The notes under the pieces: generated by a model
What the model saw: only the letters and a program-made list of their open reading frames with translations
Told to the model about the DNA's origin: nothing
The model's database searches: none
From: Phoronis australis
Lineage: Eukaryota > Animalia > Phoronida
DNA: 46,357 nucleotides
Direction of reading: 5' to 3'
Assembly: GCA_002633005.1 (NCBI GenBank)
Contig: NMRA01000444.1
Location: 332,130-378,486 of the forward strand
Made by a program: the position numbers and the translations under genes
Shown: positions 1 through 21,715 of the stretch, piece by piece
How positions within the stretch are numbered: position 1 is the first letter of the stretch
Layout of the letters: every line of letters begins with the position of its first letter

Positions 1-1827
1 CGCAACTTCCTTATAAGAACAGACCATCATTCCCTGAAGTGATTAAAGAATTTTAAAGAACCCGTCGACATGGTTGCCAGGTGGATAGCGGTTCTCGACA
101 CATATGACTACGAGATTAAGCACCGGAATGGTAATCACCACGGTAACGCTGATGGTTTGTCCCGGAAACCGTATCGCAGATACCAGCGATCTGATTGTGA
201 CCAATGTGCTGGTCAACGAGTTGTCGCCGCAGTGCGACGGGGAATACGTGTCACCAAGGAACGTGAAAACCCTGAGAGTGACGCCTGGCTGCCTACCTGG
301 AATAAAGAAGAGCTTCGTACTCTGCAACAGAACGATAAGGTCATAGGTCCAGTTGTGAAATTCATGTCTGAGTCCTCGGAGAAGCCTGAGCTTAAAGCTA
401 TATTGGGGCACTCCTGGGGTACCGGGCGTTTGTTTTCTGAGTGGAACCTTTTGCTCTTGCAGGATGGTGTTCTGTATCGGCGTTGGATCGATGCCCGTGG
501 CGGCGGTGATCGAATGGTGATTGTACTTCCACATCAATTACGGAGTCAGGTTCTCCAGCTGACGCATGACGCAAGGACAGCGGGACATCTTGGTCGCGAC
601 AAGACTATTAGGACCATCCGTTCTCGTTTCTTCTGGCCAGGGCTGCAGAGTGAAGTTTCCAGGTGGTGCAAGCGTTGCGAGATGTGCGCACGTCGCAAAC
701 CAGGTCCGGGCAGAGGTCGCGCACCACTTCAGCAGGGGCAAGCAGGCGCTCCATTCCAGCGCACTGCTTTGGACATACTTGGTCCTCTTCCAAAGTTGTA
801 CAATGACATGGAATACATCATGGTGGTCGGAGACTACTGTACCAAGTGGACGGAAGCTTATGCCTTACCAAACCACACGGCTCAGACAGTCGCAGACAAA
901 CTCGGGACAGAGTTTATCTCCAGATTTGGTGTACCAGCGTACATCCATTCTCATCAGGGTCGGGAGTTTGAAAGTAACTTGTTCTCTGAACTTTGTCAAT
1001 TGCTCGGAATGCAGAAGACTAGAACCACCCCATATCGTCCGCAATCCGATGGCATGGTGGAGCGGTTTAATCGCAAGGTCCAAGGGATGTTGGCCATGTT
1101 TGTAGACAAGCATTGGAGGGACTGGGACGACCATCTACCGTACGTCATGATGGCATATCGTTCTTCAGAGCATGACAGCACTGATTTCACACCATACAAG
1201 TTATTGTTCGGTCGGGAGATGTCGCTACATTTGGATGTTATAGCTGGTAACCCTCCTGATGGTGTTGTGTCAGAATGTGTCAGTGAATACAAAGAGTGGC
1301 TAAGTCAGACGCTGGAGGACGCCTGGAGCTTTGCTTGGGAGGCGTTGAATTCAAGTTTTCAGCGGCTGAAGAAGTACTACGATGCCCGAGAGAAATTTCG
1401 CAAATTTCGTGATGTGGACTGGGTCTTCCGATGGTACCCTCCAACTGCTAACCAGAAACTTGGTCTTGGGTGGGTGGGTCCCTACACGATAGTTAGACGA
1501 GTAAGTGATGTGCTGTATGAAGTTCAGATTTGAACTGATATGCCCAAAATTGTAGTCCATGTTGATCATTTGAAGCCATGGCATGGGCCTACTGGAGTTC
1601 ACGAGGGATGAGATGTCACTCCGGAGCCTGATCAGGGGGCGGAGGTGGTAAGCTCAGAAGAGGTCGACAGTGAAGTGTGTTCTGGCTCTTTGGACATTCT
1701 GAGTGAAGCTGAGAATGATGTTTCTTCGGGTACTGACTGCCGTGGCGCTGTCCACGCTGCAGCAAGTACACCAGTTGTTCGCAACTGCCGAGGCAGGTTG
1801 ATCAAGAAACCGGCCCGGTTTCTATAA
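1..1827 (+). pseudogene. pol: Gypsy pol (RNase H C-terminus + integrase), inactivated
   Basis: A single frame shows TDHHSLK*L, HGNADGLSR, HHCC (HDARTAGH...CKRCEMC), core (ALDILGP, IHSHQGREF, PQSDGMVERFNR), GPY, VVHVDHLKPW and C-terminal RGRLIKKPARFL. In-frame TGA stops lie at 40-42, 1531-1533 and 1609-1611. The second catalytic Asp reads His (952-954). Confidence 0.93.
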
Positions 1828-1855
1828 TGTTTTTTTATTTTGTTTCTTCTTGCAG

Positions 1856-2327
1856 AGACCTTCAGCCAGATCTTGCAGAGGTGGAGCAACTTGTGGGGAA
1901 GCCAGAGGAGGCCACCAGCCAATCTCGACCCGTATACAAGTGCGCCGAGTGTGACAGGACGTTCACCAAATTTTACACGCTGAAGCGGCACGAAAAGACT
2001 TGCTCACCGTTAATTAAACTTACCTGTTGTTCACATTGTAAGCGTAGGTTTTCAGCTAGGCACGCGTGCCGAAAACACCAACGCAAGACCGGCCACGACG
2101 GAACGACAGAAATACTGGTTCAGAACCGGAAACATGCAAAGGCTGTCGCTGCCGCAGAACGCCGGCGAGAGGTAGACGCCAGAAGGGACGTTCCCCAGCC
2201 ATTTCCTGAAGTTACGGTGGCGCGAGACGAGGCAGTGCGTTGGGACCGAGAAGGCCGGATGTATGTCTCCCCCAAACAGCACTGGTTCCGTGTCCCCGTC
2301 GAGCCATACCGCCGTTATATTAGCTAG
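1856..2327 (+). CDS. Retrotransposon-borne accessory protein with two zinc fingers (C2HC + C2H2); probably the second exon of a spliced subgenomic mRNA (unspliced ORF 1827-2327)
   Basis: YKCAECDRTFTKFYTLKRHEKTC and CSHCKRRFSARHACRKHQRKTGH (1941-2096). It is preceded by a long pyrimidine tract ending TTGCAG (AG 1854-1855) and has no internal stops. Confidence 0.75.
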
Positions 2328-2565
2328 CTAGTGTTTTTAGTTCGTTTGTATGTGTACAGGTGATGGCCGCACCTTAATTGTTTTCTTTTATTCATTTTTT
2401 GTATTAGTTTGATTTTTTTATTACGGGCAGTGTTACTGTGTAAGTTGCTCATGGTGTTTGGATAGTTTCTTTTTGTTGATTTTGATATCGATATGTTTAA
2501 GTGGTGTGAAGTTCACTCCTGTTTGTTTTATTTTTTTATTATCAGTCACGGGTGTGACATGATCT

Positions 2566-2578
2566 GAGGCAGGGGGAG
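2566..2578 (+). other. Polypurine tract
   Basis: GAGGCAGGGGGAG directly before the TGTAAC start of the LTR. Confidence 0.88.
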
Positions 2579-3177
2579 TGTAACAGGAGTGCCCTGGACA
2601 TGATTATGTAAGTGAGATATATGCGCCCTCTAGTGGTCAAGCTGTGTATTACGTATGGAATTTTCCTATGATGTTGAGTCCTTTGGACATGGCCAAATAT
2701 GGTCAGAAGCTAGGAGCTATGGGCCTTGCCCTTCAGATCGTGTCTGATTGGTTGAAATTGTGTACTTAAGCTTTGTCTCTGTCAGACACGAGGAGTCCAG
2801 TCGCAGAGTTCAAGAAGCAAACATTTACACCTTCACTCACACCAAATTGCAACTGTTTGTGCAGCTTTCGGGCTCCTCCCGAACTTGGTTGCATCTCACC
2901 TTTCGGATCTGAATAACCAAATTGCCCCGTTCTTGCACACACAACTATTAATCAAAGACTGGCGTGCCCGTGTATCAAAACTGTATAAATCACAACGCTG
3001 CGATACTAAATCATGGAACAACTGGATTGCTTGTAAGTGTGAAATATTGTAGTTATATATTCTCACAATAAACCTAGTATGTATTATTCACCAACTTTTA
3101 GTTTTCAATATCACCCTCAGTCCGCACCGGGCTCATAAAATCGGGGCGCCTTGGTCGTAGATACCGCCCCCGTTACA
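2579..3177 (+). repeat. 3' long terminal repeat (599 bp)
   Basis: Begins TGTAAC after the PPT and ends GTTACA (6-bp terminal inverted repeat). It contains ATTGG (CCAAT) ~2747, TATA-like TACTTAA ~2763 and AATAAA 3067-3072. The partner LTR is not in the window. Confidence 0.85.
3013..3032 (+). CDS. Putative LTR-encoded leader mini-exon (MEQLDC + 2 nt, phase-2 donor)
   Basis: aaatcATGG context, first ATG after the TATA-like box at ~2763, followed by GTAAGT at 3033-3038. Its phase matches the acceptor at 1855. Confidence 0.55.
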
Positions 3178-3205
3178 CACTAAAGACAATATGTATTTTG
3201 TGTTT

Positions 3206-3436
3206 AAAGCTGCTATATACCCACAATCCTTTACAAAGCTGGTATATACCCACAATCCTTCACAAAGTTGCTATATACCCACAATCCTTCATAAAGTTGC
3301 TGTATACCCACAATCCTTCACAAAGCTGCTATATACCCACAATTCCTGAGAAAGTTGCGATATACCCACAAGCCCTCACAAAGCTGCTATACACTAGCAC
3401 AAAGGTACTATATACCCACAATCCTTCACAAAACTA
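3206..3436. repeat. Minisatellite, ~29-bp unit, ~8 copies
   Basis: Unit aaagctgctatatacccacaatccttcac. Confidence 0.9.
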
Positions 3437-4211: not shown

Positions 4212-7200
4212 GTAACTTTTAATCTAGTTAGTTTTCAGCCTCACCACAAAACAAAGTTACAACACCTTTTGAGAATTGTCACTACTTCCCCTTAACAGTA
4301 TTGCTGTGATCGTGACATACAACAGTTTTATTGATCTCTGAATTGTAAAGCCATTCTGGAGCATTTGCTAACTTTTGGTATGTTGCACATCTCTGAATTA
4401 AAGCATTTGTTATTACGTAAACTGCATTCCATCATTTAAGTTCTGCTCTGCTAAAAAACAAATACACAATTCCTTATTTACTAACATATTAGAGTGTGTC
4501 ACAGCATGTTAACATGTAAATCAGTCCACTTTCGTCTTCTCGTAACTTATTTACAGTTGAAGGTATTACTGAATAGGAACATAGAAAGTGTGTGTTAATC
4601 CATTCTCAAAAAGCCTGATAGAATGACTTGAATATTAAAATCTTCCAAGCACCAACGAGTAGCCCCTTCTGTAATACCAACTCGTTACCGTTTGCCTGAC
4701 AACCGTATTTCTCAACGGGTACTATTATCAACACGTGAATTCTATTGCCGTTTTGCCGAGACTTGCGAGGATACAATGCACTGAGACTAAAGGTTTTCAC
4801 TTTATTTGCCAAGTTTCATTTTTCGTGTATTTCATATGAGTTGTCGTGCCAGAGATTCCATTTTGGTGTACAATTGGCTTGTTTTCAGGTGTTGGCTGTC
4901 AATAGTCAGCTGTATTATTGGGAAGTTCTGTTTTGTTAAAAGCAAACAGTTATCTGCACAATTGCTTATATTCACAATAAAAGCTATCTCTTTCATGCAT
5001 ATGTTTTTGTGTTTCAGAAAAAACAGACAGCTGTTAGAGAGTATCTGAGGACCATCTGGATGGGTATTCGAGCTAAATTACCAAGCTCTCTTTCCTCCAC
5101 AAAGTAATTTTTATCTCCTTACAGTACAATGCATTACAGATGTATATTGGTTTGGAAGTTGTGCGTATATAAGCAACAAGATGCTTGCTTTTTTACTTTG
5201 GGGAACGCCACGTGTTTGATAACGTTACTTGTGTGATAACATTACACTTGTGTGATGATGTTACTCGTGTGATAACGTTACTTGAATGTATGATAACATT
5301 ACTTGTGTGATAACGTTACTCTTGTGATAATGTTACTTGTGTGATAACGTTACTTTTGTGATAATGTTACTTGTGTGATAACGTTACTTGTGTGTTAATG
5401 TTACTTTTGTGATAACTTTACTTGTGTGATAACGTTACTTGTGTGATAACGTTGCTTGTGTGATAACGTTGCTTGTGTGATAACGTTGCTTGAACTGCCC
5501 CAACATACCTTGGCAGCCAACTATCTGTATGAAGACTATCGTAGTGAAAATACAGCTAGGTATCACTGTGTGTTCAGTTGCCGACAGACCTCGTACTCAG
5601 TCCTTGTAGTTCTTCTCATCACTTTACTGTGTAAATTGTGTCAATATGTAGAGCTAAAGACCGGCAGGGGTGCATGCAAAATCTGGGAGTCAACCAACAC
5701 TGACCATGCCCGTTTAAGCCGTTTAAGTGAAAAAACAATCTAATACATGTCATTTTCTTGTGTAATCCTCTGCCTTTTGTAACAAACAAAAGGTATTTCG
5801 TCATTTTGAAACGAGTATACTTGTGACACATTCACGCACCATTTCCTAAAAGTAATGTGATAGGTTTAAGTGCTCTCAAGGAAGTGCTAGCTGAAAGCTA
5901 GTGAGGCAACACACATTGTAAACATTGTGTTAATAAGAGTGACAAAATGTGAGACATTTGGCTGTCAGAAGATGGCAATACTTTTAGGCATGTCTGCATT
6001 AACATAGTATGCCTTTGAAAAAGTTGTCCACTGGTTTTATGTAAAAAGAAACTAAAGCTGTTATTAACAATGAAAAATGAAAAATATATTGAAAAGACTT
6101 GCATTGATATAAGGTGATGGTGATCAATCTAATATAAATTTCTAATAGAATTTGTACTTTAATTTGGCATGCCTTTTCTTATGTGATCAAAGTTATTAAC
6201 CGGAATTAACTGTAAATCTTGTCTTTATTTCTAGGTTTTACTCAGAATTCTTTGCTTGTGATGTTGATGACATTATTGCATCGGTAAGATCTCGATCTAA
6301 TAGCAAAACTCCCCTTCTCAATGTCTATACTTATCAAATTGATGCTTAGTGTGTTGAATATAACAGTGAAGTGGGGCCGTGTTCTGTAATGTTGGTCACT
6401 TGTTAGACATTTGTGGTGAGAAATCATGGCTTATTCAACAAAAATAGTGAGTCTCTCACATAAGTCAAGAATGTGATCTATTCCAATCGGTTCACAGACA
6501 GCCATTTTGCTAGTACGTCCTAGGAGCACTAGTGAGGTATTGCCTTTTACTGGCGGCAGCTTGCGTACTCTCACAGGTGGCAGCTTGCGTACTCTCACTG
6601 AATGTGCAAGGAACATTAGGGAACACACTCGTGACCAGTTCCGTTACATTATGTCCTCTGCTTGATTTGTCATCTGTGTCATCTTAGGCTTGGCGGAGCC
6701 AGGGTAATTTGACTGCACAGTGGCTTAAAGTTTTGCTGATGATTGTTAATCGTGGATGTCGTTCACATAAAATAGACCTTTTGAATTTGATATGCAAAGC
6801 AATGAGAGCGGTTCTTTGTGAACCCTGCTCGTGTCACACAGCTGTCCCAGTTGGACTGTGTAAGTAAACATAGCTTGTGGTAGTGGCTGAGAAGATAACT
6901 GTTTTATTATCCCCTATGGGTTTTGAATTAGCAAGCCCAGAATAGTATGGTGACATTCAAGTTAGTTTGCATAGTGACGTGTTATCCCAATGCCTGTTCC
7001 GTTTTTACCAATGTTATCGTCATAACTGAATTTTTTGTTCATTTGCTTGTGCTATGTTGATTACATTTTGGAAATTATAACCTATTAACTCAATTGAAGA
7101 TTTCAAATTAGCTTTTTCTTCTGTTTGAAATAAAATGTTATATTTTCACATTTTTGTTATAGCCTTTCCAACAGTTCTATAGATGCGAGTGTGAATATGG

Positions 7201-10200
7201 TATTGGGCGTGGCGGAGAGGATGGAAAAAGTAAGGATTCTTCTTACGTTGTATTGATTTATTGGAATCATGACAACACAAAATATAAGTCATAATTAGAC
7301 AAAATATTGACTGTTACAGTACAGAAGTTAAGTTAAGCTTGTCAAGTCATAAAATGTCTTCAAAATTGAGTATAAGGAGCAATTGCATGTTCTTTTTAGA
7401 ATCTTGTGTTTTACGCAAACATTGTTAAGTCTAATCAACACGCCACCTGTGGGGCTGTGACCATATCACATGACCTAATGAATGTAAGTCTGAAAACATT
7501 TCTACCCCAAGCAGGACTCGATCCCATGACCTCCTGCTAACTGTGCAGACGCCCTGGTCCACTAAGCTATTGGGACCAGTGGACCACTGATCGACTACAG
7601 AAGTCTAATTACATAAAATCTTCTGTTTTGTTACAAATTACACAGTTTATGTCAATTATTGCAGTTGTACAGAAATGTTGGAACGCTAAACACTTTCAGT
7701 ATGCTTTGTACTTCCCAACAAAGAGAATGACCTTAACTCAAGGTTGTGGAGTCGAATCCGACTTTGGCTCCTCAACTTGGTTTTAACTATATATTAATAA
7801 AGCATAAAAATGGTTCCAGGTGAATAGTGCAGTGGGCCCACATGAGTGACCTCTGTACGTCTGGTACACGTTCTACCTGACTGCCTGCAATTATTTTTTT
7901 TTTACTTCAGAACGAGTTGTTGGTTTGCGACTGGGGGGAATGGATACACCAAAGCTCATCAGTCCGTCTAACGGAAACCTTGTAGACAAGGCCTTGCTGC
8001 CTGTTGTGGAGGTTTGTCTAGCAGTAGTCTGCTGTTGTTTTGTACATAGAGGTTAACTGGTGTTCATATATCATTCAGAACCATTTCTCAGTCGTACAAT
8101 TTCGGTATTGTTCTTTTCTTTGTTTTGTAATGATAAATTCTGGCGTTCTTTACTTTCGGGGGAAAATGAAGCAAGAAAAAGCTGCGTCTTGGATACGACT
8201 GCTTTATCTCATCCAGAACTGTAAACACTCAGCCGCCCAGAACACATTTGAAGTACAGTAGTAATTGACCTAACAATAGCTAGTGACTCCTATATTAGAA
8301 ACAGCAAGTTACAACAATCAGTGTGATCAACTACTAATAATAATTATTTATTGTTACATAATTATTTTTTATGTATCACATTATTAATAATTGATTAATT
8401 CTTTCAGTTTTATTCCGATTTATAATTAATCTTATTTATTGACAGTTAATAATATTGTAGCTGCAAGATTGCTAAATTTGTTCGTGACTCGAAAAAGCAA
8501 TATGCTGTTCTATTCTGTGAAAATGTGTTTGATTTTTTGTGATTAAGTAGTACCTTGAATAGAGATTGTTGTCATGAACAGATGTCACGAAGTAGAACGA
8601 TTGTGTTTCCACTATTCATATTAAGTCTGTCGTCTTTGAGTGAATGTGAAATAAACTCTAATGTCTTCTGTAGAGTTTTGAGCTGTTTCTGCAACATTCA
8701 ATATTCGATGTCTATGACTCGGACACAAAAGCTGGACACTGGTCTCAACTGCTGCTGAAGACCACCCGTCAAGGGGAGGTACTCGGGGTGATTTCGTTCT
8801 TGGCAAAACACCTGGAGGAGGTAGGACATTGAATGTTTCATTGTTGGAGCACAACTCCGCCTCACCTGAGTGATAGTCATTTCATTGGCCAGATCTACTG
8901 GTCAGTCATTTTTATTTTGGTTTAAAATGTTGAACCAACCTTAAGTTGTTGAATATTTCCAGATTATCCTCAATAATCTTTTTAAAGATAGCATGTGAAG
9001 TTGATATTGCATTGAAACTGCCAATGTGTGCATGATGACATCATGGAAATGACATCACTTGTGGTGTGTACAAGTGTGAGGAAGTTATGTTACAAACTAT
9101 GTAACTTTGGGTCATATAACCAAAAAAGAAGTGGACATTGTTACCAAGTTCAAGGACGGATTTTCTGTCCTCTGAATCTGATGTCAGATGTGCTGGCAGT
9201 TTGCCAGAGATCTGTAGAAAGGTTCAATAATGATGGATGGTGATTGATAACAGTTGGTTATCCCTATTTGTTCTGTCCAACAGAATGCTCTGCTGCTGTC
9301 AACGTNNNNNNNNNNNNNNNNNNNNNNNNNNNNNNNNNNNNNNNNNNNNNNNNNNNNNNNNNNNNNNNNNNNNNNNNNNNNNNNNNNNNNNNNNNNNNNN
9401 NNNNNNNNNNNNNNNNNNNNNNNNNNNNNNNNNNNNNNNNNNNNNNNNNNNNNNNNNNNNNNNNNNNNNNNNNNNNNNNNNNNNNNNNNNNNNNNNNNNN
9501 NNNNNNNNNNNNNNNNNNNNNNNNNNNNNNNNNNNNNNNNNNNNNNNNNNNNNNNNNNNNNNNNNNNNNNNNNNNNNNNNNNNNNNNNNNNNTTTTTTTT
9601 TACTTCAGAACGAGTTGTTGGTTTGCGACTGGGGGGAATGGATACACCAAAGCTCATCAGTCCGTCTAACGGAAACCTTGTAGACAAGGCCTTGCTGCCT
9701 GTTGTGGAGGTTTGTCTAGCAGTAGTCTGCTGTTGTTTTGTACATAGAGGTTAACTGGTGTTCATATATCATTCAGAACCATTTCTCAGTCGTACAATTT
9801 CGGTATTGTTCTTTTCTTTGTTTTGTAATGATAAATTCTGGCGTTCTTTACTTTCGGGGGAAAATGAAGCAAGAAAAAGCTGCGTCTTGGATATGACTGC
9901 TTTATCTCACTCCTCATCCAGAACTGTAAACACTCAGCCGCCCAGAACACATTTGAAGTACAGTAGTAATTGACCTAACAATAGCTAGTGACTCCTATTT
10001 TAGAAACAGCAAGTTACAACAATCAGTGTGATCAACTACTAATAATAATTATTTATTGTTACATAATTATTTTTTATGTATCACATTATTAATAATTGAT
10101 TAATTCTTTCAGTTTTATTCCGATTTATAATTAATCTTATTTATTGACTGTTAATAATATTGTAGCTGCAAGATTGCTAAATTTGTTCGTGACTCAAAAA

Positions 10201-13200
10201 AGCAATATGCAGTTCTATTCTGTGAAAATGTGTTTGATTTTTTGTGATTAAATAGTACCTTGAATAGAGATTGTTGTCATGAACAGATGTCACGAAGTAG
10301 AACGATTGTGTTTCCACTATTCATATTAAGTCTGTCGTCTTTGAGTGAACGTGAAATAAACTCTGTCTTCTGTAGAGTTTTGAGCTGTTTCTGCAACATT
10401 CATTATTCGATGTCTATGACTCGGACACAAAAGCTGGACACTGGTCTCAACTTCTGCTGAAGACCACCCGTCAAGGGGAGGTACTCGGGGTGATTACGTT
10501 CTTGGCTAAACACCTGGAGGAGGTAGGACATTGAATGTTTCATTGTTGGAGCACAGCTCCGCCTCACCTGAGTGATAGTCATTTCATTGGCCAGATCTAC
10601 TGGTCAGTCATTTTTATTTTGGTTTAAAATGTTAAACCAACCTTAAGTTGTTGAATATTTCCAGATTATCCTCAATAATCTTTTTAAAGATAGCATGTGA
10701 AGTTGCCATTGCATTGAAACCGCCAATATGTGCATGATGACATCATGGAAATGACATCACTTGTGGGGTGTACAAGTGTGAGGAAGTTATGTTACAAACT
10801 ATGTAACTTTGAGTCATCCAACCAAAACTAATAGACAAAGAAGTGGACATTGTTACCAAGTTCAAGGACGGATTTTCCGTCCTCTGAATCTGATGTTAGA
10901 TGTGCTGGCAGTTTGCCAGAGATCTGTAGAAAGGTTCAATAATGATGGATGGTGATTGATAACAGTTGGTTATCCCTATTTGTTCTGTCCAACAGAATGC
11001 TCTGCTGCTGTCAACGTGCCAGGTCAAAAATCTTGAAATGAGACTCATAAAGCTGGCTTGACCTTGGCTTGACCTAGTTTGGTTTTATTTGACAAGCATG
11101 GCTTTCAGTTATAACAAATTGCTCGTTCTTCTCAAGTGCACAAAGTATGATCTGAGCTGGGAACAAGTCAAGACCAGCTTTATAGTCATGAGGAATATGA
11201 AGAAGTGTCTTTTCTAATTGAAGCTCACAGCATTTAAATGACGGTTGTAGCCTTACTATAAGTGTTTTACACTGTTATCATTTAAATGTAGCCTTATTGT
11301 AAGTGTTTTACACTGTTATCATTTCAGAGCGATGTTGAGGTCGCCAAGAATTCCCTGATGAAACATTTCTCTCAAGGGAATGATGTAGGCTGTCCCAAGC
11401 TGTTATCTCTTTACTTTCAGTAAGTTTTGTTATTGTTAATGATGTTTGTGTGGCCTAGTGGGATAGGTGTTTGTTTCCTTTACTCAAGGTCGTCTGTTGG
11501 AGTCCGACTGAGGCACACTGCTAGACCACTGAGCCAGGTCTCTAGCTCCTCAGCTGGGATTTAACTGTATTAATAAAGCATAAAAATGGTTCCAGGTGAT
11601 CAGTGCAATGGACCCACCCTAGCGGTCTGCATAATGTGTACCAGAATGCCTGCAATTATTTTTATAGGATCGTAGTTGTAGGGACTGCAGCTGTGATAGC
11701 CAGGGGACACAATTTGATTACAGCCACTTGCTACAGGGGACACAACTTGATTACAGCCACTTGCTGTAGGGGACGTAACTTGATAACAGCCACTTGCAAT
11801 AATTTGTTCTTAGCCCATGCATGACTTCAGTGAGTGAATGTCTAGTGATTTAGATTCATGAGTAAGTAGCTAAGAAGGGTGCACTTAAATATGACGGATG
11901 GAAATTGGACTGAATGTGGCGCTACCTCACTGTTTACAGTGCCTAAACCAAAACATTGAATTATATGATTCTTTGTTTCATCGGTTTACTCCAACCTCTT
12001 TGCTAGTTTTTCTGTGGTTTTCGTTTAATGATTTCTCCACGTTGAACTGGTGAGTGACGAGTACACTTGTAGCTGTTGACAGTTGTATTTTTGGCAAATG
12101 ATTGTTACTACTGGATTTAAACTCATCTTCTAATTGTACTTGAAACAGTACTTTATATATGCCATCGTCTCATCAGTTAAGCTACTGATTTATCCACTAA
12201 TTATGAGAAAGTATTTGCAATGCCTTCAATAGTTACCATAACCACGATTGGTTGGAAGAATCTGGAAAATAGTTTTCTTCAGTCTGTAATTCAACACTTC
12301 AGTGATGGCAGCCATTTTATTGATAATACTTTATTTGTGTGTCTAGGCTTGTGGTCCCTGCGTGCTGTGTTGCAGGATTACTTGCAAACCACCTTTTACT
12401 AGCTTGGTTACGTGATCTTATGAGGTCTCCCTAAAGTTGTAAGAGACTAGTGTTAAGGAACACACCTCAGCTTGGTTGTTTGCCTAGCTGCCTAAATCCA
12501 TTACTGTGTTATGTCAAATGTACGACTTCTTTCATCTTTTTTATCCGAAACACGATATCACGTTTACCGTCTCACCCAATCTCTGGGGTGCAGGTTTCAG
12601 TTTGTCATGTAGGTGAAGTGTTGGAGATGTGCCCAGGCAACGGCTGTCATTTTACATTTCCAGCACGTTGAGGTCACAACTGGCTGTGTTTGTGTTTTCA
12701 GTGTCTCCAAAGGTGAGAAAGTGCCATCGTCCACCAGTCTGTTGTTCACTAGAGGTGAAGCTATAGAGAAGATATGCCAGACCTCCTTCAGGCTGTCCCG
12801 TGATGTGAGCCTCAGAGGTGGGTCGTATTGTGTCATCTTACCACCTTAGAGCGCGCATAAACACACCTGTCTGTAATAACTGTTGTAATAATACTTCAGT
12901 TTGGGACAAAATATGGCTTACAGTTGAAATTTCATTTTATCAAATTTCTCAACAAAAATAACTTTTCAGGAAAATTCACTTGGCTTTTGACTGGGTTTGT
13001 GTGTCGTATTAGTAAACAACATTTGGTAAAGTTTTGAGCATTTGCAACAATGTGGTAAGCTTCTTAACAATAGAAATATGGGAATTTTAGCTATTCTATT
13101 TGTTCCAAATTAAAGATTTTTCACTGTGTTAGGTTTAGAATGTTTGTTCTTCATTCTAGAGTGTTTTACAACAACTATGACTTTAGTAGTTTGCTAATGA

Positions 13201-16200
13201 GAGTGAAATGAAGATTAAATACCTTCAAGTACCGACTGTCTTGAAAGCTGAAGTCTGTCCTCGCATTGAGTTTCTTCATGTAGAGAAACTATGTGGGATT
13301 ATCCTGTTATTAATTTATTAAAAGTGAAATATTACAACGTTATTTTGATACCAAGGTTTTTGGATACCTCTTCAGTGTTGTCCATTGTCTATATAGCCTA
13401 GCTGCATTACATGAAGGTAATATATAGCCTAGCTATATTACATGAAGGTAATATATAACATAGCTGTATTACATGAAGGTAATATATAACATAGCTGTAT
13501 TACATGAAGGTAATATATAGCCTAGCTATATTACATGAAAGTAATATATAGCCTAGCTGTATTACATGGAAGTAATATATAGCCTAGCTATAGTACATGA
13601 AAGTAATATATAGCCTAGCTATATTACACGAAGGTAATATATAGCCTAGCTGTATTACATGAAAGTAATATATAGCCTAGCTATATTTCATGAAGGTAAT
13701 ATATAACCTAGCTGTATTACATGAAGGTAATATATATAGCCTAGCTGTATTACATGAAGATAATGTATAGCCTTGCTGTATTACATGAAGGTAATGTATA
13801 GCCTTGCTGTATTACATGAAGGTAATATATAACCTAGCTGTATTACATGAAGGTAATATATAACCTAGCTGCATTACATGAAGGTAATATATAGCCTAGC
13901 TGTATTACATGAAGGCAATATATAGCCTTGCTGTATTACACAAAGGTAATGTATAGCCTAGCTGTATTACATGAAGGTAATTAGCAATAGTAGTGATTTA
14001 CAACTTCCAAGCACATTTCAATTATGTGTGAAGCAAATGAGTAAATTAACCTGTCTAATGAAGCTTTTCGTTGTTGCCTTGTTTGTGTATAATGTAATTC
14101 ATGGTTTGCTGTGTTTATTTGACTTCAGCAAACCTGTCAGCTGCAGAATGTTTGTACAAGAAAATTGTTGAGTTGAGCAACTTGTCTTGCGATGACGCTG
14201 TAATTGACGTCTGCTGCGGGGCTGGGCTTACTGGACAGATCTTGGACTCTAAGCTGGTTAGTGTCGATAAGATTAACAGTTCACGTAGTGGTTGTTATGG
14301 CAGAATTTTTGTGCTGACCATGAAAAATGGAATATGCTTCAGGTTGTTTAAGACTGGCATTCAAAAATGACGACGTATTTCCTTGTAACACTTAGTCGTC
14401 AAATACTGTAAAAATGCCATTTCTTGTTGTATTGTGTTTTTTGTGTAATACAATTCAGGGAGTTCTCTCTACAACTCCTGGGGTCTGAGAAGTGACGCTA
14501 GATTTAAGTCTTACGCCTTATGTTCCACACAACTATTTTGGAAAAATAAATAAATTTTACTCCGTCACTAAGGTCATTACTGCTACTTACTGAGATAGTT
14601 TGTATATTAATTGCAAGGCTGTGATGTGCTGATAATAGCAAGGCTGTGATGTGCTGATAATAGCAAGGCTGTGATGTGCTGATAATAGCAAGGGTAAACC
14701 TTGATTCAATAATTGTCAAGAGGCAGCGGATGACCTAATTTTGGATTTAATTCCTAAGTCACTTTCCGTGACACAGTTCCCTGGTCATTATTGTTGAGTT
14801 CATCTTCTGCTAGAGAAAGTCCTCACGATGAGAACGCAGCGTCGGTCAGATGAAATGTAAGTCCAGTATTAGTTTTAATATTTTTTACTGATATTTATCA
14901 ACTGATTGTCTAATATTCACCAACTGGTTGAGTACATCTATTACTTCCTTGTTCCAGTCGTGTTCTAGTGTGATTGGCATTGACAGCTCCCCTAGTGCCA
15001 TTGAAGAGGCAAGATACAATGCACATTTAAACGGTAAGCTGAGCTATCTCTTTCATGTTCTTTTTCATCTTTATGCAATATCGATTGTTTATACAGTCCA
15101 ATTTGTCAATTCTGGTGCACATATTTGCTATAGAAAAAAAATCCCAACTGTGACTGTATCGCAACCAATGACACCAGAACTAGAACTGGTTGGCTTTAAT
15201 GATTGGAATTTTTCTTTAATTTTATGAGTCCCCTTCATTATCACTTTTACTTTAGTTTTAATGAAAAATATTAGTATTTCAGCAGATTTTGTTTGTGAGA
15301 TTTGTAAGCTTTAATTTTGTTTAATAACCTCAATATCTACAAGTCTTATTTCCGAGATGTCTTACACGCCTGTATATTCTTTGATACCTCTTCATCACAA
15401 GATATCTTACACACCTGTATATTCTTTGATTATACCTCCGCATTACAAAAACGATCTGAGTGATATATAATTTAAGTGGCGTAGCAGTTGGATTATTTTC
15501 ATTTTGTAACAGCACATTTTAGATTTTCAATGTAACTGAATAGGCTACAGTTAAAGTGACAAACCCGCGTTCCTTCGAGAAAACTAATTTTTAGTTGAGA
15601 CAAGTTACCACAATAAAACTGGTTCCTTCTTGTTTCTTACTCAAATGGGTTTTGGTCTTCCAAGAAACTGAAGCCTCATTATTGCAGTGAATCACTTGAT
15701 ATTCCCTGATAACTCATCTTATAGAGCCTTACTTCAATTATGAACTGTCAGTCCAGATATCTTACCTATTTTGACTACAGGATAATTTGAGATCAATTTT
15801 GCAAGGGTAAGTGGTCTTAATTAAATGTTGGTTGTGGTGACTAAAAGTGGGTTTATAGCCACTTTAAACCATCCTCTGTTGATTTCTGATCGATTGATGT
15901 CTGATTGATTGATTTCTAATCATGAATTAAAGAATGTCCTAGCACGCGTGATTGATTAAGTTTTGTGCTTATTTCTTCTGAGTGCCAGGCTGAGCACTGT
16001 ACTGTCTAATGTCTTGTCTCAGGTTTAGTGAACACTGAGTACGTTCACGGGAAAGTGGAGACATCTTTGAAAGGAGCTTTACAACGTCCCTGTGTGAATG
16101 GCAAGTCTGTAACTGTAGTCATTGACCCGACGAAAACTGGACTGGGTAAGGGCGGCTGTGAGCTATGATAGGCAACAATAGATAGAACATCTGTGAACTG

Positions 16201-19200
16201 TAGGACAATTAAAAGCATTGTCAATGATATCTGATTGTCATGTTAGATCTTTAGGTATGATAGTTGTGTTCAATGTATGACTACATTCTATCCTCGGGTG
16301 TAAGATATCATTGTATGATTGATGTAATGGAGTGATATTATACAGCATTAAGCAGGACTGTACTCTACTAAACGACAAATATCCACCGGAGACTTATATT
16401 TGCATTATAAAGGTGTTATAAGTTGCGATAGGCTGAACATCCCCACTTCATTTTGTGACTGACATGCATGTCAAGGTCATGATCAGGGCATATTCCATAA
16501 TGCCAGTCTCAAGAAACCTTGGCTTTTGGAATAGAAATAGTTTACTTATTAACAGTTTTCTGCCACAACTCAAAATTCCAGTGTAACCTACCAAATCACT
16601 TCTGTGGCAGCATTTTACAAGTGTATACTTGACTGATTGAAATTTTTCTCGTGAAACATTCGCATTTTACTAGCATGATCTAACTCAGTAGAAACTTACT
16701 CTTTGCACATCTCGAAGTCTGAGATGTTATCAAAAGGTTGTGGTTCAAGATGTGATGTTCTTCCTTGTATGTGGAATGTGACAAACCTCATTTTTGTCTC
16801 TCGTTGCAGACAACCGTTGCATCCTTAGATTGAGGAGGAAGAGAAGTGTTCGACGTGTTATCTACATCTGCACGATCCCTTGTGCACCTTGTGACAATTT
16901 TGTAAGGTAAAGGTCACCTTAGGTCATTGCAGCTAGAATAATGTCTCTTAGTATTGTTAAGATCCTTTAATGGCCATTGAAGCTTTTGAACAGGCTTTGA
17001 CAGCAACTGGATCTCTTGCCGTTTTGAAGCAAAATAATGCTGTGACCTTTGCCAACCCTCAAAACAATTAAAACTGAAAACTCAGGAAAAAGTTTGCTAA
17101 ATTGGAAAGCATTACTGACTCCTAGGAATCATCAGTATGTTCCACAGGTTAAGACCACCCACCTCAAACCAATGTACACACTTTGTGACTGAGGATATGT
17201 TTTAGTTGAGGATTCTCTCAGTGACAGTATTAATTATGAAAAAATAGGTTATCTAACCCATTTCAGGTGTAATCACTAGAAAGTGTTTTTTTAACAGAAA
17301 ATGCTATAAAATAGTAAGTTCTTTTAGTTGTGCTTTCTGTTAGAAATATTAACTGATATTGAATGCAAATTTTCACATGTTTTTTCTAGTGTCAGTTGTT
17401 TGGTTTTGTCTTAATATATATCTTTAAATGAAGGAAATTTTGTTATTTACAAGAGTGGCCACTCCAAGTATACAATGGTTTGGTCATTGTGACATCTGTG
17501 TGTTTGTTTATTTGTCAAGCTCAGTCACCATCACACTATGTTCAAGTCTGACTTTGTCTTGTCATCGTTTCTTTCAGCTTGGTGCTACCAAATGAAACTC
17601 CTCTTGACGGCAGCTCATTCAAGTTGGTACGAGTGGCAGCCGTGGATGTCTGCCCTAACACCAGTTATTGCCAGGCTGTGTTGCTGTTTGAGAAGAGCTC
17701 TGAAGATGGTTGGGAAGTGGGTGAGGTAAGTGAAGAAGAGTCTGAGGACGAACCTGAAGAGATAGAGACTGATGAAGGTGTTGAGGTGGTTGAAGCTACC
17801 AAGGAAGTGAGGCGTCAAGGTGAAGGTGATGCATCAAAAAAGAGTGAGGAGGATGTTGTGGTTATTGACTCTGTTAAACCAGATGTCATTGTAATTGAAA
17901 TCGACAGTGACAGTGACGATGAAGTGAAAATTGTAAGTAAACCTACGAAAGAGTCACTGCATAAGTTGGACTTGTCCAAAGTGAAAAGGGAAGAAGAAGC
18001 TGTGACTGAAGCCCCGGCTATCAAACTGGAGGAGGTTGATGTCAGTACTGAATCAATCGGAGTTGGCTCTGAAGGTGGTACTGCAGCAAATGTTGAAGAC
18101 ATGTCTCAGTGTAGTGTGAAGGAAGAGCCAGGATTGGGAGAACCTGTAGCAGTGTCCTCAGTGATAGTAAAGCAGGAGAAGGGAGACATTGAAGGAGACA
18201 GTCATGTGAAGTCTGGCAGCTTCTTGCAGGATGTTGATGTGAAACAAGAGATGGTTGAAGTGAAAGTTGAGGTGTTCCACGGAGGTTCTTGGGCTACTGG
18301 GAAAGAATCTCATGAAGATAGTGAAATGACTGAAGATGTCACTACTGGTGAAACTGAAGTAAACCCTGTGCACAGAACTGAAGAGTTGATGAATGATGAG
18401 ATGAACATATCTTCAGCAACTCCAAACAAGACTAAAGTGTGTGAAGACAAACAAGCTTTTGAAGTAGTAACTGGTTCTAGTATTTCATTGCCATCACCTC
18501 AATTTGGTGAAGAGAACCAACAGTCAACCGCTTCACCACCAATAGTCCAAGCTTTGGATGAAGTACATGGTGAGGATGAGCAAAATTCAGGGGAAGAGGT
18601 TCCACTTTCAGCTGATTCTGGTACTTCAGAACTACCGCCTCAGTACGTCCAGCAAGCTTGTGGAAAGAGTGAATATGGAACAGAGAAAGGGAACACATCA
18701 AGCCTTTCAGCAGCTTCCTCCCAAGTTGTAGAAGAAGTACAAGAGAAAGTTAAGCGTGCTGTGGAGACTGTGGCATCAGTAACAGTAGTTAATAATTGTT
18801 CTANTAGTTGAGGATTCTCTCAGTGACAGTATTAATTATGAAAAAATAGGTTATCTAACCCATTTCAGGTGTAATCACTAGAAAGTGTTTTTTTAACAGA
18901 AAATGCTATAAAATAGTAAGTTCTTTCAGTTGTGCTTTCTGTTAGAAATATTAACTGATATTGAATGCAAATTTTCACATGTTTTTTCTAGTGTCAGTTG
19001 TTTGGTTTTGTCTTAATATATATCTTTAAATGAAGGAAATTTTGTTATTTACGAGAGTGGCCACTCCAAGTATACAATGGTTTGGTCATTGTGACATCTG
19101 TGTGTTTGTTTATTTGTCAAGCTCAGTCACCATCACACTACGTTCAAGTCTGACTTTGTCTTGTCATCGTTTCTTACAGCTTGGTACTACCAAATGAAAC

Positions 19201-21715
19201 TCCTCTGGAAGGCAGCTCATTCAAGTTGGTGCGAGTGGCAGCCGTGGATGTCTGCCCTAACACCAGTTATTGCCAGGCTGTGTTGCTGTTTGAGAAGAGC
19301 TCTGAAGATGGTTGGGAAGTGGGTGAGGTAAGTGAAGAAGAGTCTGAGGAGGAACCTGAAGAGATAGAGACTGATGAAGGTGTTGAGGAGGTGGTTGAAG
19401 CTACCAAGGGAGCGAGACGTCAAGGTGAAGGTGATGCATCAGAAAAGAGCGAGGAGGATGTTGTGGTTGTTGAGTCAGTTAAACCAGATGTCATTGTAAT
19501 TGAAATCGACAGTGATAGTGACGATGAAGTGGAAATTGTAAGTAAACCTACGAAAGAGTCACTGCATAAGTTAGACTTGTCCAAAGTGAAAAGGGAAGAA
19601 GAAGCTGTGACTGAAGCCCCGGCTATCAAACGGGAGGAGGTTGATGTCAGTACTGAATCAATCAGAGTTGGCTCTGAAGGTGGTACTGCAGCAAAAGTTG
19701 AAGACATGTCTCAGTGTAGTGTGAAGGAAGAGCCAGGATTGGGAGAACCTGTAGCAGTGTCCTCAGTGATAGTAAAGCAGGAGAAGGGAAACATTGAAGG
19801 AGACAGTCATGTGAAGTCTGGCAGCTTCTTGCAGGATGTTGATGTGAGACAAGAGAGGGTTGAAGTGAAAGTTGAGGTGTTCCACGGAGGTTCTTGGGCT
19901 ACTGGGAAAGAATCTCATGAAGATAGTGAAATGACTGAAGATGTCACTACTGGTGAAACTGAAGTAAACCCTGTGCACAGAACTGAAGAGTTGATGAATG
20001 ATGATATGAACATATCTTCAGCAACTCCAAACAAGACTAAAGTGTGTGAAGACAAACAAGCTTTTGAAGTAGTAACTGGTTCTAGTATTTCATTGCCATC
20101 ACCTCAATTTGGTGAAGAGAACCAACAGTCAACCGCTTCACCACCAATAGTCCAAGCTTTGGATGAAGTACATGGTGAGGATGAGCAAAATTCAGGGGAA
20201 GAGGTTCCACTTTCAGCTGATTCTGGTACTTCAGAACTACCGCCTCAGTACGTCCAGCAAGCTTGTGGAAAGAGTGAATATGGAACAGAGAAAGGGAACA
20301 CATCAAGCCTTTCAGCAGCTTCCTCCCAAGTTGTAGAAGAAGTACAAGAGAAAGTTAAGCGTGCTGTGGAGACTGTGGCATCAGTAACAGTAGTTAATAA
20401 TTGTTCTACTGTGTCAACTGATCCTTCTGTAGAAGAGTGTATGGAACTTTCAGAGAAAGAAGACAAAGAGTCTTCAGACATTGCTACTGATAAACCAGTT
20501 TGTAAAAATGTTGAAGAAAATACTGGAGAGATGATAGACATGGCAAGGACAGAGCTCCATGATGCATGCATCACATTACCACCTGAAACTTCTAAGAAAC
20601 ATGCAACAGAGCCTAACAAGTTGGTTGATGAGGTAGTTGTTGCCCAAAATGAGAATGACTCTTCTCTAGAAAGTGCTGATGAGGCAAAAGAGTCCTCTGC
20701 GTCACTGGCCGCAGATAAAGGCAGTGTAGATGGCTCTGTGTTGGCAAGCCTCAGCAGTGCTGTTCCAAAAAGTCCACAACCATTTAATACAGCTGCTGCA
20801 GCTATTGAAGAAATATCACAAAAGAGGTTTGAAGATGAATGTACTCCAACAAAGCACCGAAGACTTGATGATGATTCTGCTTCACCGTTAGAAATGGAAA
20901 GAATGTCTTCTGGAGAACACTCATCTCCAACCAAAAGAGGAAGAGGCAGGGGTCGTGGCAGAGGTCGGGGGAGAGGTCGAGGGAAAGCTGTGAAAGTTCA
21001 GGAGACCAAGGAACATGATACAGAACTCAACAATGAGGTTGACGTAGCAGCTGTTTCCAGGAAACAAAATTACTCAGAATATAATGATGAGATAAAAGAG
21101 TCCTCTGCAGTACAGAAGACTGGTAAAAGTGACAAAGATGGCTCTGTGCTTGCAAGTCACAGCAGTACTATTCCGTTAAGCCTACAGGCGGTTACTGCTG
21201 CTGCTTGTTTGGAAGAAATGTCAGAAAAAAGTGTTGAAGGCAAAGGTACTCTCGCAAAGCGCCAAAAAATGGACGATTCTTCTTCACTTAGGGAATTGGA
21301 TGAGGAGGCAATGTATTCTGGTGAACACTCAACACCAACTAAACGAGGTAGAGGTAGAGGAAGAAGCAGGGGCCGTGGAAGTCGTGGGAGAGCTGTTAAA
21401 GTTGCGGAGACACTAACGCACGAAGCAGACACTGGCAAGTTGGTTTGTGAAAGTACAGCAGAAGATTTAGTTACTGATAAGCAAGCAAACAGCTCAGAAG
21501 ATATAGCACGCAGAACACGTGCTGGACAAAGTTCTTCTGGAGGTCATATCAAGAAAGACCAACAGTCTAGTGCAGCTCCCTCTGTTGAAGATAAAGATCT
21601 AGAAGAAGACAAAGAATTAGAAACATTGAGTTCCGTCGACTCAACTCTAGGGATGAGCCCTAGGGGAAGAGGACGAGGTAGAGGCCGGGGCAGGGGACGA
21701 AAGAGAAAACGTTGA
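4157..21715 (+). CDS. TRMT2-like: TRMT2/TrmA-family tRNA (uracil-5-)-methyltransferase-like gene, divergent (probable pseudoenzyme) with long acidic tail; 5' exons probably upstream of the window
   Basis: Exons 4157-4211, 5018-5103, 6235-6283, 7163-7229, 7911-8011 (dup 9609-9709), 8674-8820 (dup 10376-10522), 11328-11419, 12702-12817, 14129-14256, 14958-15033, 16023-16145, 16810-16906, 19180-21715 (partial dup from 17578). All are GT-AG and phase-consistent, giving ~1223 aa collinear with TRMT2A motifs (PFWKVPYEDQ, GHWSQLLLKTT, IDVCCGAG, VIGID, VDVCPNT). Confidence 0.88.
5018..5103 (+). CDS. TRMT2-like exon (KKQTAVREYLRTIW...)
   Basis: tttcag/gtaatt; phases 0-2 fit the neighbours. Confidence 0.75.
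5212..5492. repeat. Minisatellite, 17-bp unit, ~16 copies
   Basis: Unit ttgtgtgataacgttac, containing the palindrome taacgtta. Confidence 0.92.
6235..6283 (+). CDS. TRMT2-like exon (FYSEFFACDVDDIIAS)
   Basis: ttctag/gtaaga; phases 2-0. Confidence 0.75.
7163..7229 (+). CDS. TRMT2-like exon (PFQQFYRCECEYGIGRGGEDGK)
   Basis: Aligns to family PxxxxYRNKCEFxIG; ttatag/gtaagg. Confidence 0.82.
7430..7610 (-). mobile_element. tRNA-derived SINE-like repeat, family A
   Basis: The minus strand of 7505-7575 has A box TAGCTTAGTGG and B box GGATCGAGTCC. A related copy lies at ~35625-35790. Confidence 0.6.
7725..7903 (+). mobile_element. SINE-like interspersed repeat, family B
   Basis: B-box-like GTCGAATCC. 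It shares tattaataaagcataaaaatggttccaggtga and tgcctgcaattattttt with 11450-11666. Confidence 0.6.
7911..8011 (+). CDS. TRMT2-like exon (RVVGLRLGG...PVVE), copy 1
   Basis: cttcag/gtttgt; VGxRLG motif. Confidence 0.8.
8674..8820 (+). CDS. TRMT2-like exon (SFELFLQ...GHWSQLLLKTTRQGE...), copy 1
   Basis: ctgtag/gtagga; matches family GHWxQLxVRT. Confidence 0.85.
9593..11017 (+). repeat. Near-identical second copy of ~7895-9305 (exon copies 9609-9709 and 10376-10522); likely alternate haplotype
   Basis: Direct repeat separated only by the N-gap, with scattered SNPs and small indels. Confidence 0.9.
11328..11419 (+). CDS. TRMT2-like exon (SDVEVAKNSLMKHF...LSLYF)
   Basis: tttcag/gtaagt; SLYF motif. 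Confidence 0.82.
11450..11666 (+). mobile_element. SINE-like repeat, family B
   Basis: A-box-like TGGCCTAGTGG at the start; body shared with 7725-7903. Confidence 0.6.
11701..11797. repeat. 33-bp tandem repeat x3
   Basis: Unit caggggacacaacttgattacagccacttgcta. Confidence 0.85.
12702..12817 (+). CDS. TRMT2-like exon (...EKICQTSFRLSRDVSLR)
   Basis: tttcag/gtgggt; aligns to ExLxGLxFRISPxAFFQ. Confidence 0.8.
13390..13980. repeat. Minisatellite, ~31-bp unit, ~19 copies
   Basis: Unit tatatagcctagctgtattacatgaaggtaa. Confidence 0.93.
14129..14256 (+). CDS. TRMT2-like exon with SAM-binding motif I (NLSAAECLY...IDVCCGAG)
   Basis: cttcag/gttagt; matches NTxAAEVLY...LDVCCGTG. Confidence 0.9.
14613..14692. 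repeat. 25-bp tandem repeat x3
   Basis: Unit gcaaggctgtgatgtgctgataata. Confidence 0.85.
14958..15033 (+). CDS. TRMT2-like exon (SCSSVIGIDSSPSAIEEARYNAHLN)
   Basis: ttccag/gtaagc; methyltransferase VIGxD/E...A..NA motif. Confidence 0.9.
16023..16145 (+). CDS. TRMT2-like exon (LVNTEYVHGKVE...VVIDPTKTGL)
   Basis: tctcag/gtaagg; aligns to the DPPRAGL region. Confidence 0.85.
16810..16906 (+). CDS. TRMT2-like exon (NRCILRLRR...VIYICTIPCAPCDNFV)
   Basis: ttgcag/gtaaag; aligns to IRR...LLYVSCNP...NF. Confidence 0.85.
17203..18803 (+). repeat. First, truncated copy of 18805-20408 (intron end plus first ~410 codons of terminal exon, from 17578); likely alternate haplotype
   Basis: Near-identical direct repeat joined at the single N at 18804. 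Confidence 0.9.
19180..21715 (+). CDS. TRMT2-like terminal exon: end of methyltransferase fold plus ~800-aa acidic low-complexity tail with RG blocks
   Basis: 844-aa ORF after the ttacag acceptor. It starts with FKLVRVAAVDVCPNTSYCQAVLLFEK (family VDLFPxTxHxE..LFER). Confidence 0.9.

Follow-up and report, generated by a model that had tools for sequence, protein, structure and literature searches.

The stretch of Phoronis australis DNA analysed here (46,357 nucleotides, hereafter the window) begins inside the pol gene of a Ty3/Gypsy LTR retrotransposon, the 5' part of which lies outside it. The assignment to Ty3/Gypsy follows from an integrase with HHCC, core and GPY/F modules and from a purine tract followed by a TG...CA LTR; a second copy of the element was not found within the window. 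Between the integrase and the LTR, in the env slot, the place of the retroviral envelope gene, lies an open reading frame that encodes two zinc fingers. The features of the element are:

43..1827 (+): 3' part of pol (RNase H end; integrase HHCC, core and GPY/F module), from Pfam
1825..1829 (+): TAATG, in which the pol stop overlaps ATG 1827, from which the finger frame is open for 166 aa
1830..1855 (+): polypyrimidine tract and AG, predicted splice acceptor of phase 2, from its rank, relatives and read depth
1856..2327 (+): finger ORF, 156 codons from 1857, with an acidic start, a C2HC finger, a C2H2 finger, a basic helix and an unrelated tail
2565..2578 (approximate limits, +): polypurine tract, from sequence
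2579..3177 (+): 3' LTR, 599 bp, TGTAAC...GTTACA, from sequence and loose read ends at both edges
2746..2801 (+): what we take to be a candidate upstream promoter, with a reverse CCAAT at 2746, TATA-like TACTTAAG at 2763 and initiator-like CCAGT at 2797
2984..2990 (+): TATAAAT, presumably a rival TATA box, 29 nt before ATG 3013
3013..3038 (+): ATG, six codons and two bases, then GTAAGT (3033), candidate coding first exon
3067..3072 (+): AATAAA, 34 nt past the donor, likely poly(A) signal

Pfam matches in pol comprise Integrase_H2C2, rve and Integrase_p58_C. The pol of this copy is broken, with a premature stop at 1531-1533 and a frame shift in the integrase tail, which reaches the natural stop at 1825-1827 and ends in a basic R..GR..KP motif that is also present at the pol ends of relatives. 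Integrase homologs carry RT/RNase H domains alongside, and those with named sources come mostly from Mytilus and Pinctada, with others in Littorina, Priapulus and Araneus, a spread that indicates an invertebrate host. RNA reads from three runs (X2-X4) break at both edges of the LTR, with 17, 12 and 29 loose ends at 2579 in X2-X4 and 24 and 11 at 3177 in X2 and X3, which confirms that it is a repeated LTR. At 2868-2892 many reads step back by 25 nt and have additional letters inserted; most expressed copies of the LTR therefore bear a longer, duplicated form of this segment. At 3126-3178 an opposite-strand read pile in X2 and X3 covers only the 52-nt end of the LTR, with constant flanks on both sides, and probably represents a host transcript with an LTR fragment. 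Near the 5' end of the LTR, positions 2623-2636 closely match the CTCF consensus on the minus strand; a scan of the relatives' LTRs with the same pattern did not find it.

The two fingers follow the patterns C-x2-C-x12-H-x3-C and C-x2-C-x12-H-x5-H described in an earlier note made from the sequence alone, and they lie in a frame that stays open from 1737 up to its stop codon at 2325-2327. Finger 1, which ends in Cys, matches Pfam zf-C2H2 at E 5.6e-4 and 20.7 bits against a curated cut-off of 25.2. The finger pair is basic, with 15 K/R in 55 residues, and a helix is predicted. A transmembrane segment was not found in the finger protein (maximum 19-residue hydropathy 0.40), and while ORF3 of an errantivirus encodes a membrane glycoprotein by definition, Pfam gives fingers only for the ORF of this element. 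Of the earlier proposal that the element makes a regulator instead of Env, the non-Env half is supported, and the regulator role would be a probable one. Sequence searches gave no close homolog of the protein: as a query, the finger ORF had 0 homologs at E <= 0.01 among 119 candidates, its pattern had 4 matches in viral contigs with 0 confirmed, comparison with proteins returned generic multi-finger proteins only among the best 150 of 834, and comparison with the Atlas returned generic finger clusters and no close homolog.

A single-sequence model of the window's finger protein is poor (mean pLDDT 57); the model of a relative, L006, built on a nine-row alignment, has 71 residues at a pLDDT of at least 90 and is confident over the fingers. 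The L006 finger pair superposes on the DNA-bound fingers of tramtrack and CTCF at 1.5-1.8 Å with E values of 0.015-0.05, which are not significant, and by sequence a profile of nine relatives matches CTCF, TFIIIA and Zif268. The modelled fold of the relative is thus compatible with DNA binding, and RNA binding may apply as well. A fold search of viral models gave no match at E <= 0.001.

Between the acceptor and the fingers the ORF has no in-frame ATG, the first after the acceptor being at 2259, past the fingers; translation must therefore start from an upstream exon or from ATG 1827, unless the start has been lost in this copy. The acceptor AG at 1854-1855 is of phase 2, as had been claimed, with one base after the AG and the first full codon at 1857. 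Its tract ranks 1st among the 209 AGs in 31-3200, with 21/24 pyrimidines, and the AG lies ~28 nt past the natural end of pol. ATG 1827, which is in frame, was absent from the earlier note, as were AATAAA 3067 and the ATG...GTAAGT pair at 2600/2608 discussed below; the TAATG would also match a branch point located ~28 nt upstream of the AG.

Finger ORFs recur well beyond this copy. An integrase profile matched 203 stretches of metagenome contigs. Confirmation left 175, the 80 best of which were retained, and 45 of these counted as assessable because 900 nt or more followed the integrase core. An ORF of at least 80 aa with a finger motif was found in sense after the integrase in 25/45 assessable loci, of which 17 have two fingers and 8 have a single one, compared with 3/45 in antisense and 3/900 in shuffles. 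Among the 25, L066 is probably a chance call and L067 is degenerate; four shorter loci (L020, L040, L033 and L074) also carry a finger ORF. In an integrase tree (FastTree, midpoint-rooted, 83 pieces, rows below 200 aa dropped, labels by hand) the clade of the window (support 0.94) has the ORF in 13/16 assessable loci, the call being absent in L013, L017 and L002. Finger ORFs are also found on several other integrase branches, and some branches are without a third ORF. The integrases across this recurrence are only 35-59% identical, and the zinc ligands are invariant in relatives at a finger ORF identity of ~20-30%. The nearest loci mostly have fingers of a CPxxxC...HW type and not of the window's classical type, and when profiles of the two types are aligned the match is confined to the fingers (hhalign 93.6%, E 2e-7). 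With a profile built from the ORFs of nine relatives, 2 of 755 candidate proteins were recovered, both of them close copies of a single input sequence; the word filter of this search is weak for fast-evolving proteins.

Splice signals were scored in 25 hand-picked loci, namely the census loci minus L066 and L067, plus L020 and L040. In 15/25 of these, an in-frame Met is preceded within 30 nt by a YAG whose tract has 10 or more pyrimidines out of 14, where control ATGs at the same cut-off (85/2194 and 79/1006) give an expectation of 1.9-3.8; at a cut-off of 9 the count is 20/25. The acceptor motif, the conservation of which the earlier note wanted tested, thus recurs in most of these loci, and a Met precedes the first finger in 24/25 loci. 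An acceptor before an own Met gives the genes of the relatives the look of spliced ones in which the first exon does not code, which is at odds with the claim that the ATG sits in an upstream exon: in relatives it is in the 3' exon. Since both the finger ORF and the acceptor recur, a non-Env accessory gene that lies between integrase and purine tract, most likely made from a spliced RNA, is well supported.

Other cargo was seen in the same position. In L041 (1085-2783) and L023 (7671-8175) a post-pol ORF begins with C-x2-C-x5-H-x3-C and has no classical fingers, that of L041 sitting directly behind a pyrimidine tract, AG and ATG, and L013, L017, L057 and L072 have other finger-less ORFs there; the post-pol slot seems to swap cargo between elements.

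The earlier note placed the first coding exon of the finger gene in the LTR. All the parts that it named are present: ATG 3013 with A at -3 and G at +4, six codons and two bases, and GTAAGT at 3033 in phase 2, preceded by a long ATG-free run that extends from 2722 to 3012 (291 nt). ATG-free runs of this length occurred in 4/2000 shuffled LTRs. The first ATG of 2760-3177 was open into a phase-2 GTAAGT in 17/2000 dinucleotide shuffles and into GTRAG in 48/2000, and with any ATG of the interval allowed the counts were 57/2000 and 270/2000. The exon pattern thus has a chance of 1-3%, a figure that is suggestive only, as the pattern was picked after the fact. A further ATG...GTAAGT phase-2 pair at 2600/2608 is too near the LTR start for transcription from the element's promoter, so such pairs arise without exon use. 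The donor, which had been called perfect, is indeed GTAAGT but has a middling score by a weight matrix, with 93/300 shuffles as good, and RNA structure around it is not stabler than in shuffles (z 0.90). Donors are not clearly enriched in any of the LTRs of seven finger-bearing relatives, with LTR limits set by eye (16, 21, 183, 186, 203, 223 and 272 of 300 shuffles), contrary to the expectation that the site would be conserved. By eye, L036, L044 and L046 have AG/GT ~75-85 nt past a clear TATA box and the L009 LTR has GTAAGT; in L012 and L021 donor-like sites follow the PBS.

On unspliced RNA, ATG 3013 opens a seven-codon ORF with its stop inside the donor. The promoter composed of CCAAT 2746, TACTTAAG 2763 and CCAGT 2797 would place this ATG ~215 nt into the RNA. 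A transcription start set by TATAAA 2984 at or after the ATG was named in the earlier note as a refutation; the box, 29 nt upstream, could set a start at ~3013, and the objection holds only if the box is used.

Three raw RNA runs (563, 531 and 709 reads; 18-19% of each run) and one contig set were aligned to positions 1-3400; the runs X2-X4 were picked by species label, most of their reads are 95-99% alike to the window, and a minus-strand first mate was taken as sense. Sense depth rises at the acceptor bin from 1.3 to 16.5 in X4, from 3.0 to 10.0 in X3 and from 1.6 to 4.0 in X2. The junction predicted from the LTR exon, 3032 to 1856, is absent among the six joints listed in the three runs and the contig set. 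A listed joint from 756 to 1863 (2, 5 and 2 reads) has CAGC microhomology and occurs on both strands; considered as a splice, it offers no GT or GC..AG in any register, and it is a microhomology deletion. This deletion accounts for part of the depth step. The remainder could consist of reads with loose ends beyond those listed, and in that case a donor lying beyond the window would be favoured. The enrichment of the acceptor motif in relatives and the depth step suggest a spliced gene in the env slot, and no splice joint to the acceptor is among those listed; splicing to AG 1855 is what we infer.

In X4 the sense depth drops from 148 to 44 to 10 across 2851-3192, which fits an RNA 3' end near AATAAA 3067 (about 3040-3090) and so puts donor 3033 inside the RNA. 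Much of the LTR depth is read-through across the LTR 5' edge, so that the start site is not readable from depth; two piles of read beginnings, at 3016 and 3041, may be 5' or 3' ends. Of the four read differences listed in the finger ORF, 3 are synonymous; in one contig 2 extra bases follow position 2315, close to the C-terminus of the finger protein. The 756/1863 deletion variant has most of the integrase removed and the finger ORF kept, and a second such variant, 2598/3012, has 413 nt of the LTR removed.

The closest precedent is Cer1, a Ty3/Gypsy element of C. elegans, which makes a spliced non-Env regulator, CERV, from a post-pol ORF (PMC10309623). CERV has 517 aa and five exons, with its N-terminal half from gag-frame exons and a putative C4 loop, and that account reports no homologs outside nematodes. 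Both are non-Env ORFs lying after pol and before the 3' LTR; the ORF of the window differs in encoding ~160 aa with tandem classical fingers and in its proposed start in the LTR. In foamy viruses the major splice donor lies in R, upstream of the poly(A) signal, in both LTRs (PMC3694450), a layout that would correspond to GTAAGT 3033 before AATAAA 3067; a coding LTR exon is proposed here only, the foamy virus passages containing none. The gene of the window thus resembles CERV in its place and in the way it is probably expressed, would have the LTR layout of foamy viruses, and is a member of neither system. In LTR retrotransposons of bdelloid rotifers the env position holds a third ORF that is stated to be typically expressed from spliced transcripts, and these ORF3s are described as exonucleases, lipases and membrane proteins, unlike the finger protein of the window (PMC5408684); the words 'zinc' and 'finger' are absent from the main text of that article. 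Errantivirus Env and mdg1-family sORF2 (PMC13486581, PMC13524379) are extra Ty3/Gypsy ORFs under selection that encode membrane fusion proteins, whereas the finger protein has no transmembrane segment. The UAAUG stop-start coupling of SART1 (PMC3894237) shares with the window an overlap of stop and ATG, but SART1 is a non-LTR element and conservation of the window's overlap was not seen among relatives. Term look-ups in PMC13524379, PMC6238403, PMC8556966, PMC8220671, PMC13486581, PMC5718144, PMC6431247, PMC5408684 and PMC2774666 returned no description of the architecture, nor did a targeted search of the open literature; Repbase, subscription journals and supplements may hold one. The earlier suggestion of novelty is accordingly narrowed: a spliced non-Env post-pol regulator (Cer1) and an LTR donor (foamy viruses) precede it, and no published account of the combined architecture was found.

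The first coding exon inside the LTR has in its favour the ATG, the donor and the matching phases, and against it the missing joint, the rival TATAAA and the lack of donor enrichment in relatives; we tentatively regard it as the best single candidate for the start of the finger gene, at somewhat less than an even chance. A start codon and donor located 5' of the window, in early gag or the leader as in Cer1, are a possibility that we consider doubtful, in which case the LTR GTAAGT would be fortuitous or would recruit U1 to inhibit polyadenylation at the 5' LTR. The first three CERV exons are in the gag frame (PMC10309623), a donor 34 nt before AATAAA is the foamy layout (PMC3694450), the donor-like sites after the PBS in L012 and L021 have the appropriate position, and the listed joints leave a depth step in X4 that fits a donor outside the aligned stretch; this account, however, leaves unexplained a phase-matched ATG in strong context that ends the 291-nt ATG-free run. 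It is unlikely that the gene simply had its own ATG after the acceptor, as in relatives, and that a broken copy lost it, with no coding LTR exon required. The Met before the first finger in almost all scored loci, the broken pol and the many differences from the window common to all reads point in this direction, but the finger ORF itself is open and no indel lies near 1856 among the 12 of 27 listed, at a position where depth is low. Unspliced expression by termination-reinitiation at the TAATG is less likely still: ATG 1827 is in frame with 166 aa open and UAAUG is used by SART1 (PMC3894237), yet the first ten codons would consist of nothing but the pyrimidine tract and the TAAT fits a branch point. 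As a rule for the clade the stop-start overlap failed, being found in 1/17 relatives, and there together with an acceptor.

Two further alternatives concern the function of the protein. That it acts as a chromatin tether for integration, and not as a regulator of transcription or RNA, is a minority prospect in our estimate. In five loci (L021, L025, L030, L052 and L071) the finger ORF shares the reading frame of the integrase and takes the position of a chromodomain, but at the boundary all five retain a Met and an AG resembling an acceptor, so in-frame finger ORFs can be made separately. The ORF could also be an exon captured from a host zinc-finger gene, or have arisen by chance, with no role for the element. 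This reading would agree with the generic multi-finger proteins that alone match the window ORF; it is largely refuted by the same slot and orientation across distant integrases and by the invariant ligands, and we consider it very improbable.

Taken together, these results suggest that the element carries a real accessory finger gene, probably spliced and probably regulating its own element, a reading that we favour with some confidence. In the lineage of the window the start codon would have moved from the 3' exon, its place in relatives, to ATG 3013 of the 5' LTR, with transcription from near 2800 and with donor 3033 in R, upstream of the poly(A) signal; we put this scheme forward tentatively, as one that falls a little short of even likelihood. 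On unspliced RNA, ATG 3013 would then act as a seven-codon upstream ORF. The finger pair may regulate transcription by binding to the LTR of the element, a proposal that is evenly balanced in our judgement, the alternatives being RNA binding, with export in the manner of CERV or Rev, or tethering of integrase to chromatin. More speculatively, and with considerable doubt, a large and apparently undescribed group of invertebrate Ty3/Gypsy elements may be 'complex' elements with a spliced two-finger regulator, the start having moved into the LTR in the window lineage, where ATG 3013 would also serve as a uORF braking gag and the donor would also guard the 5' poly(A) site.

Diagrams of animal Gypsy elements that lack env usually show gag-pol only, and complex retroviruses carry regulators of their own, such as Tat, Rev and Tas. 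Retention of a finger gene at the env position in many distant invertebrate lineages would mean that these elements, too, bring their own regulator, and it provides a concrete test of self-control by an element or of its evasion of host silencing. If the coding LTR exon is true, every solo LTR would be an ATG-plus-donor cassette able to splice into host genes.

Elsewhere in the window, a long acidic host-like ORF at 17203-21712 contains three GRGRGRG repeats (AT-hook-like or RG), its first 1.6 kb being tandemly duplicated at 94-99% identity; a convincing Pfam match to this ORF was not found. A ~1.7-kb direct duplication at 7895-11017 (98-100% identity) surrounds an N gap and may be an assembly artefact. 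Tandem arrays occur at 5204-5524 (17 nt), 13265-14074 (31 nt), 30288-30895 (15 nt) and 3176-3435 (29 nt), the last of which adjoins the LTR directly.
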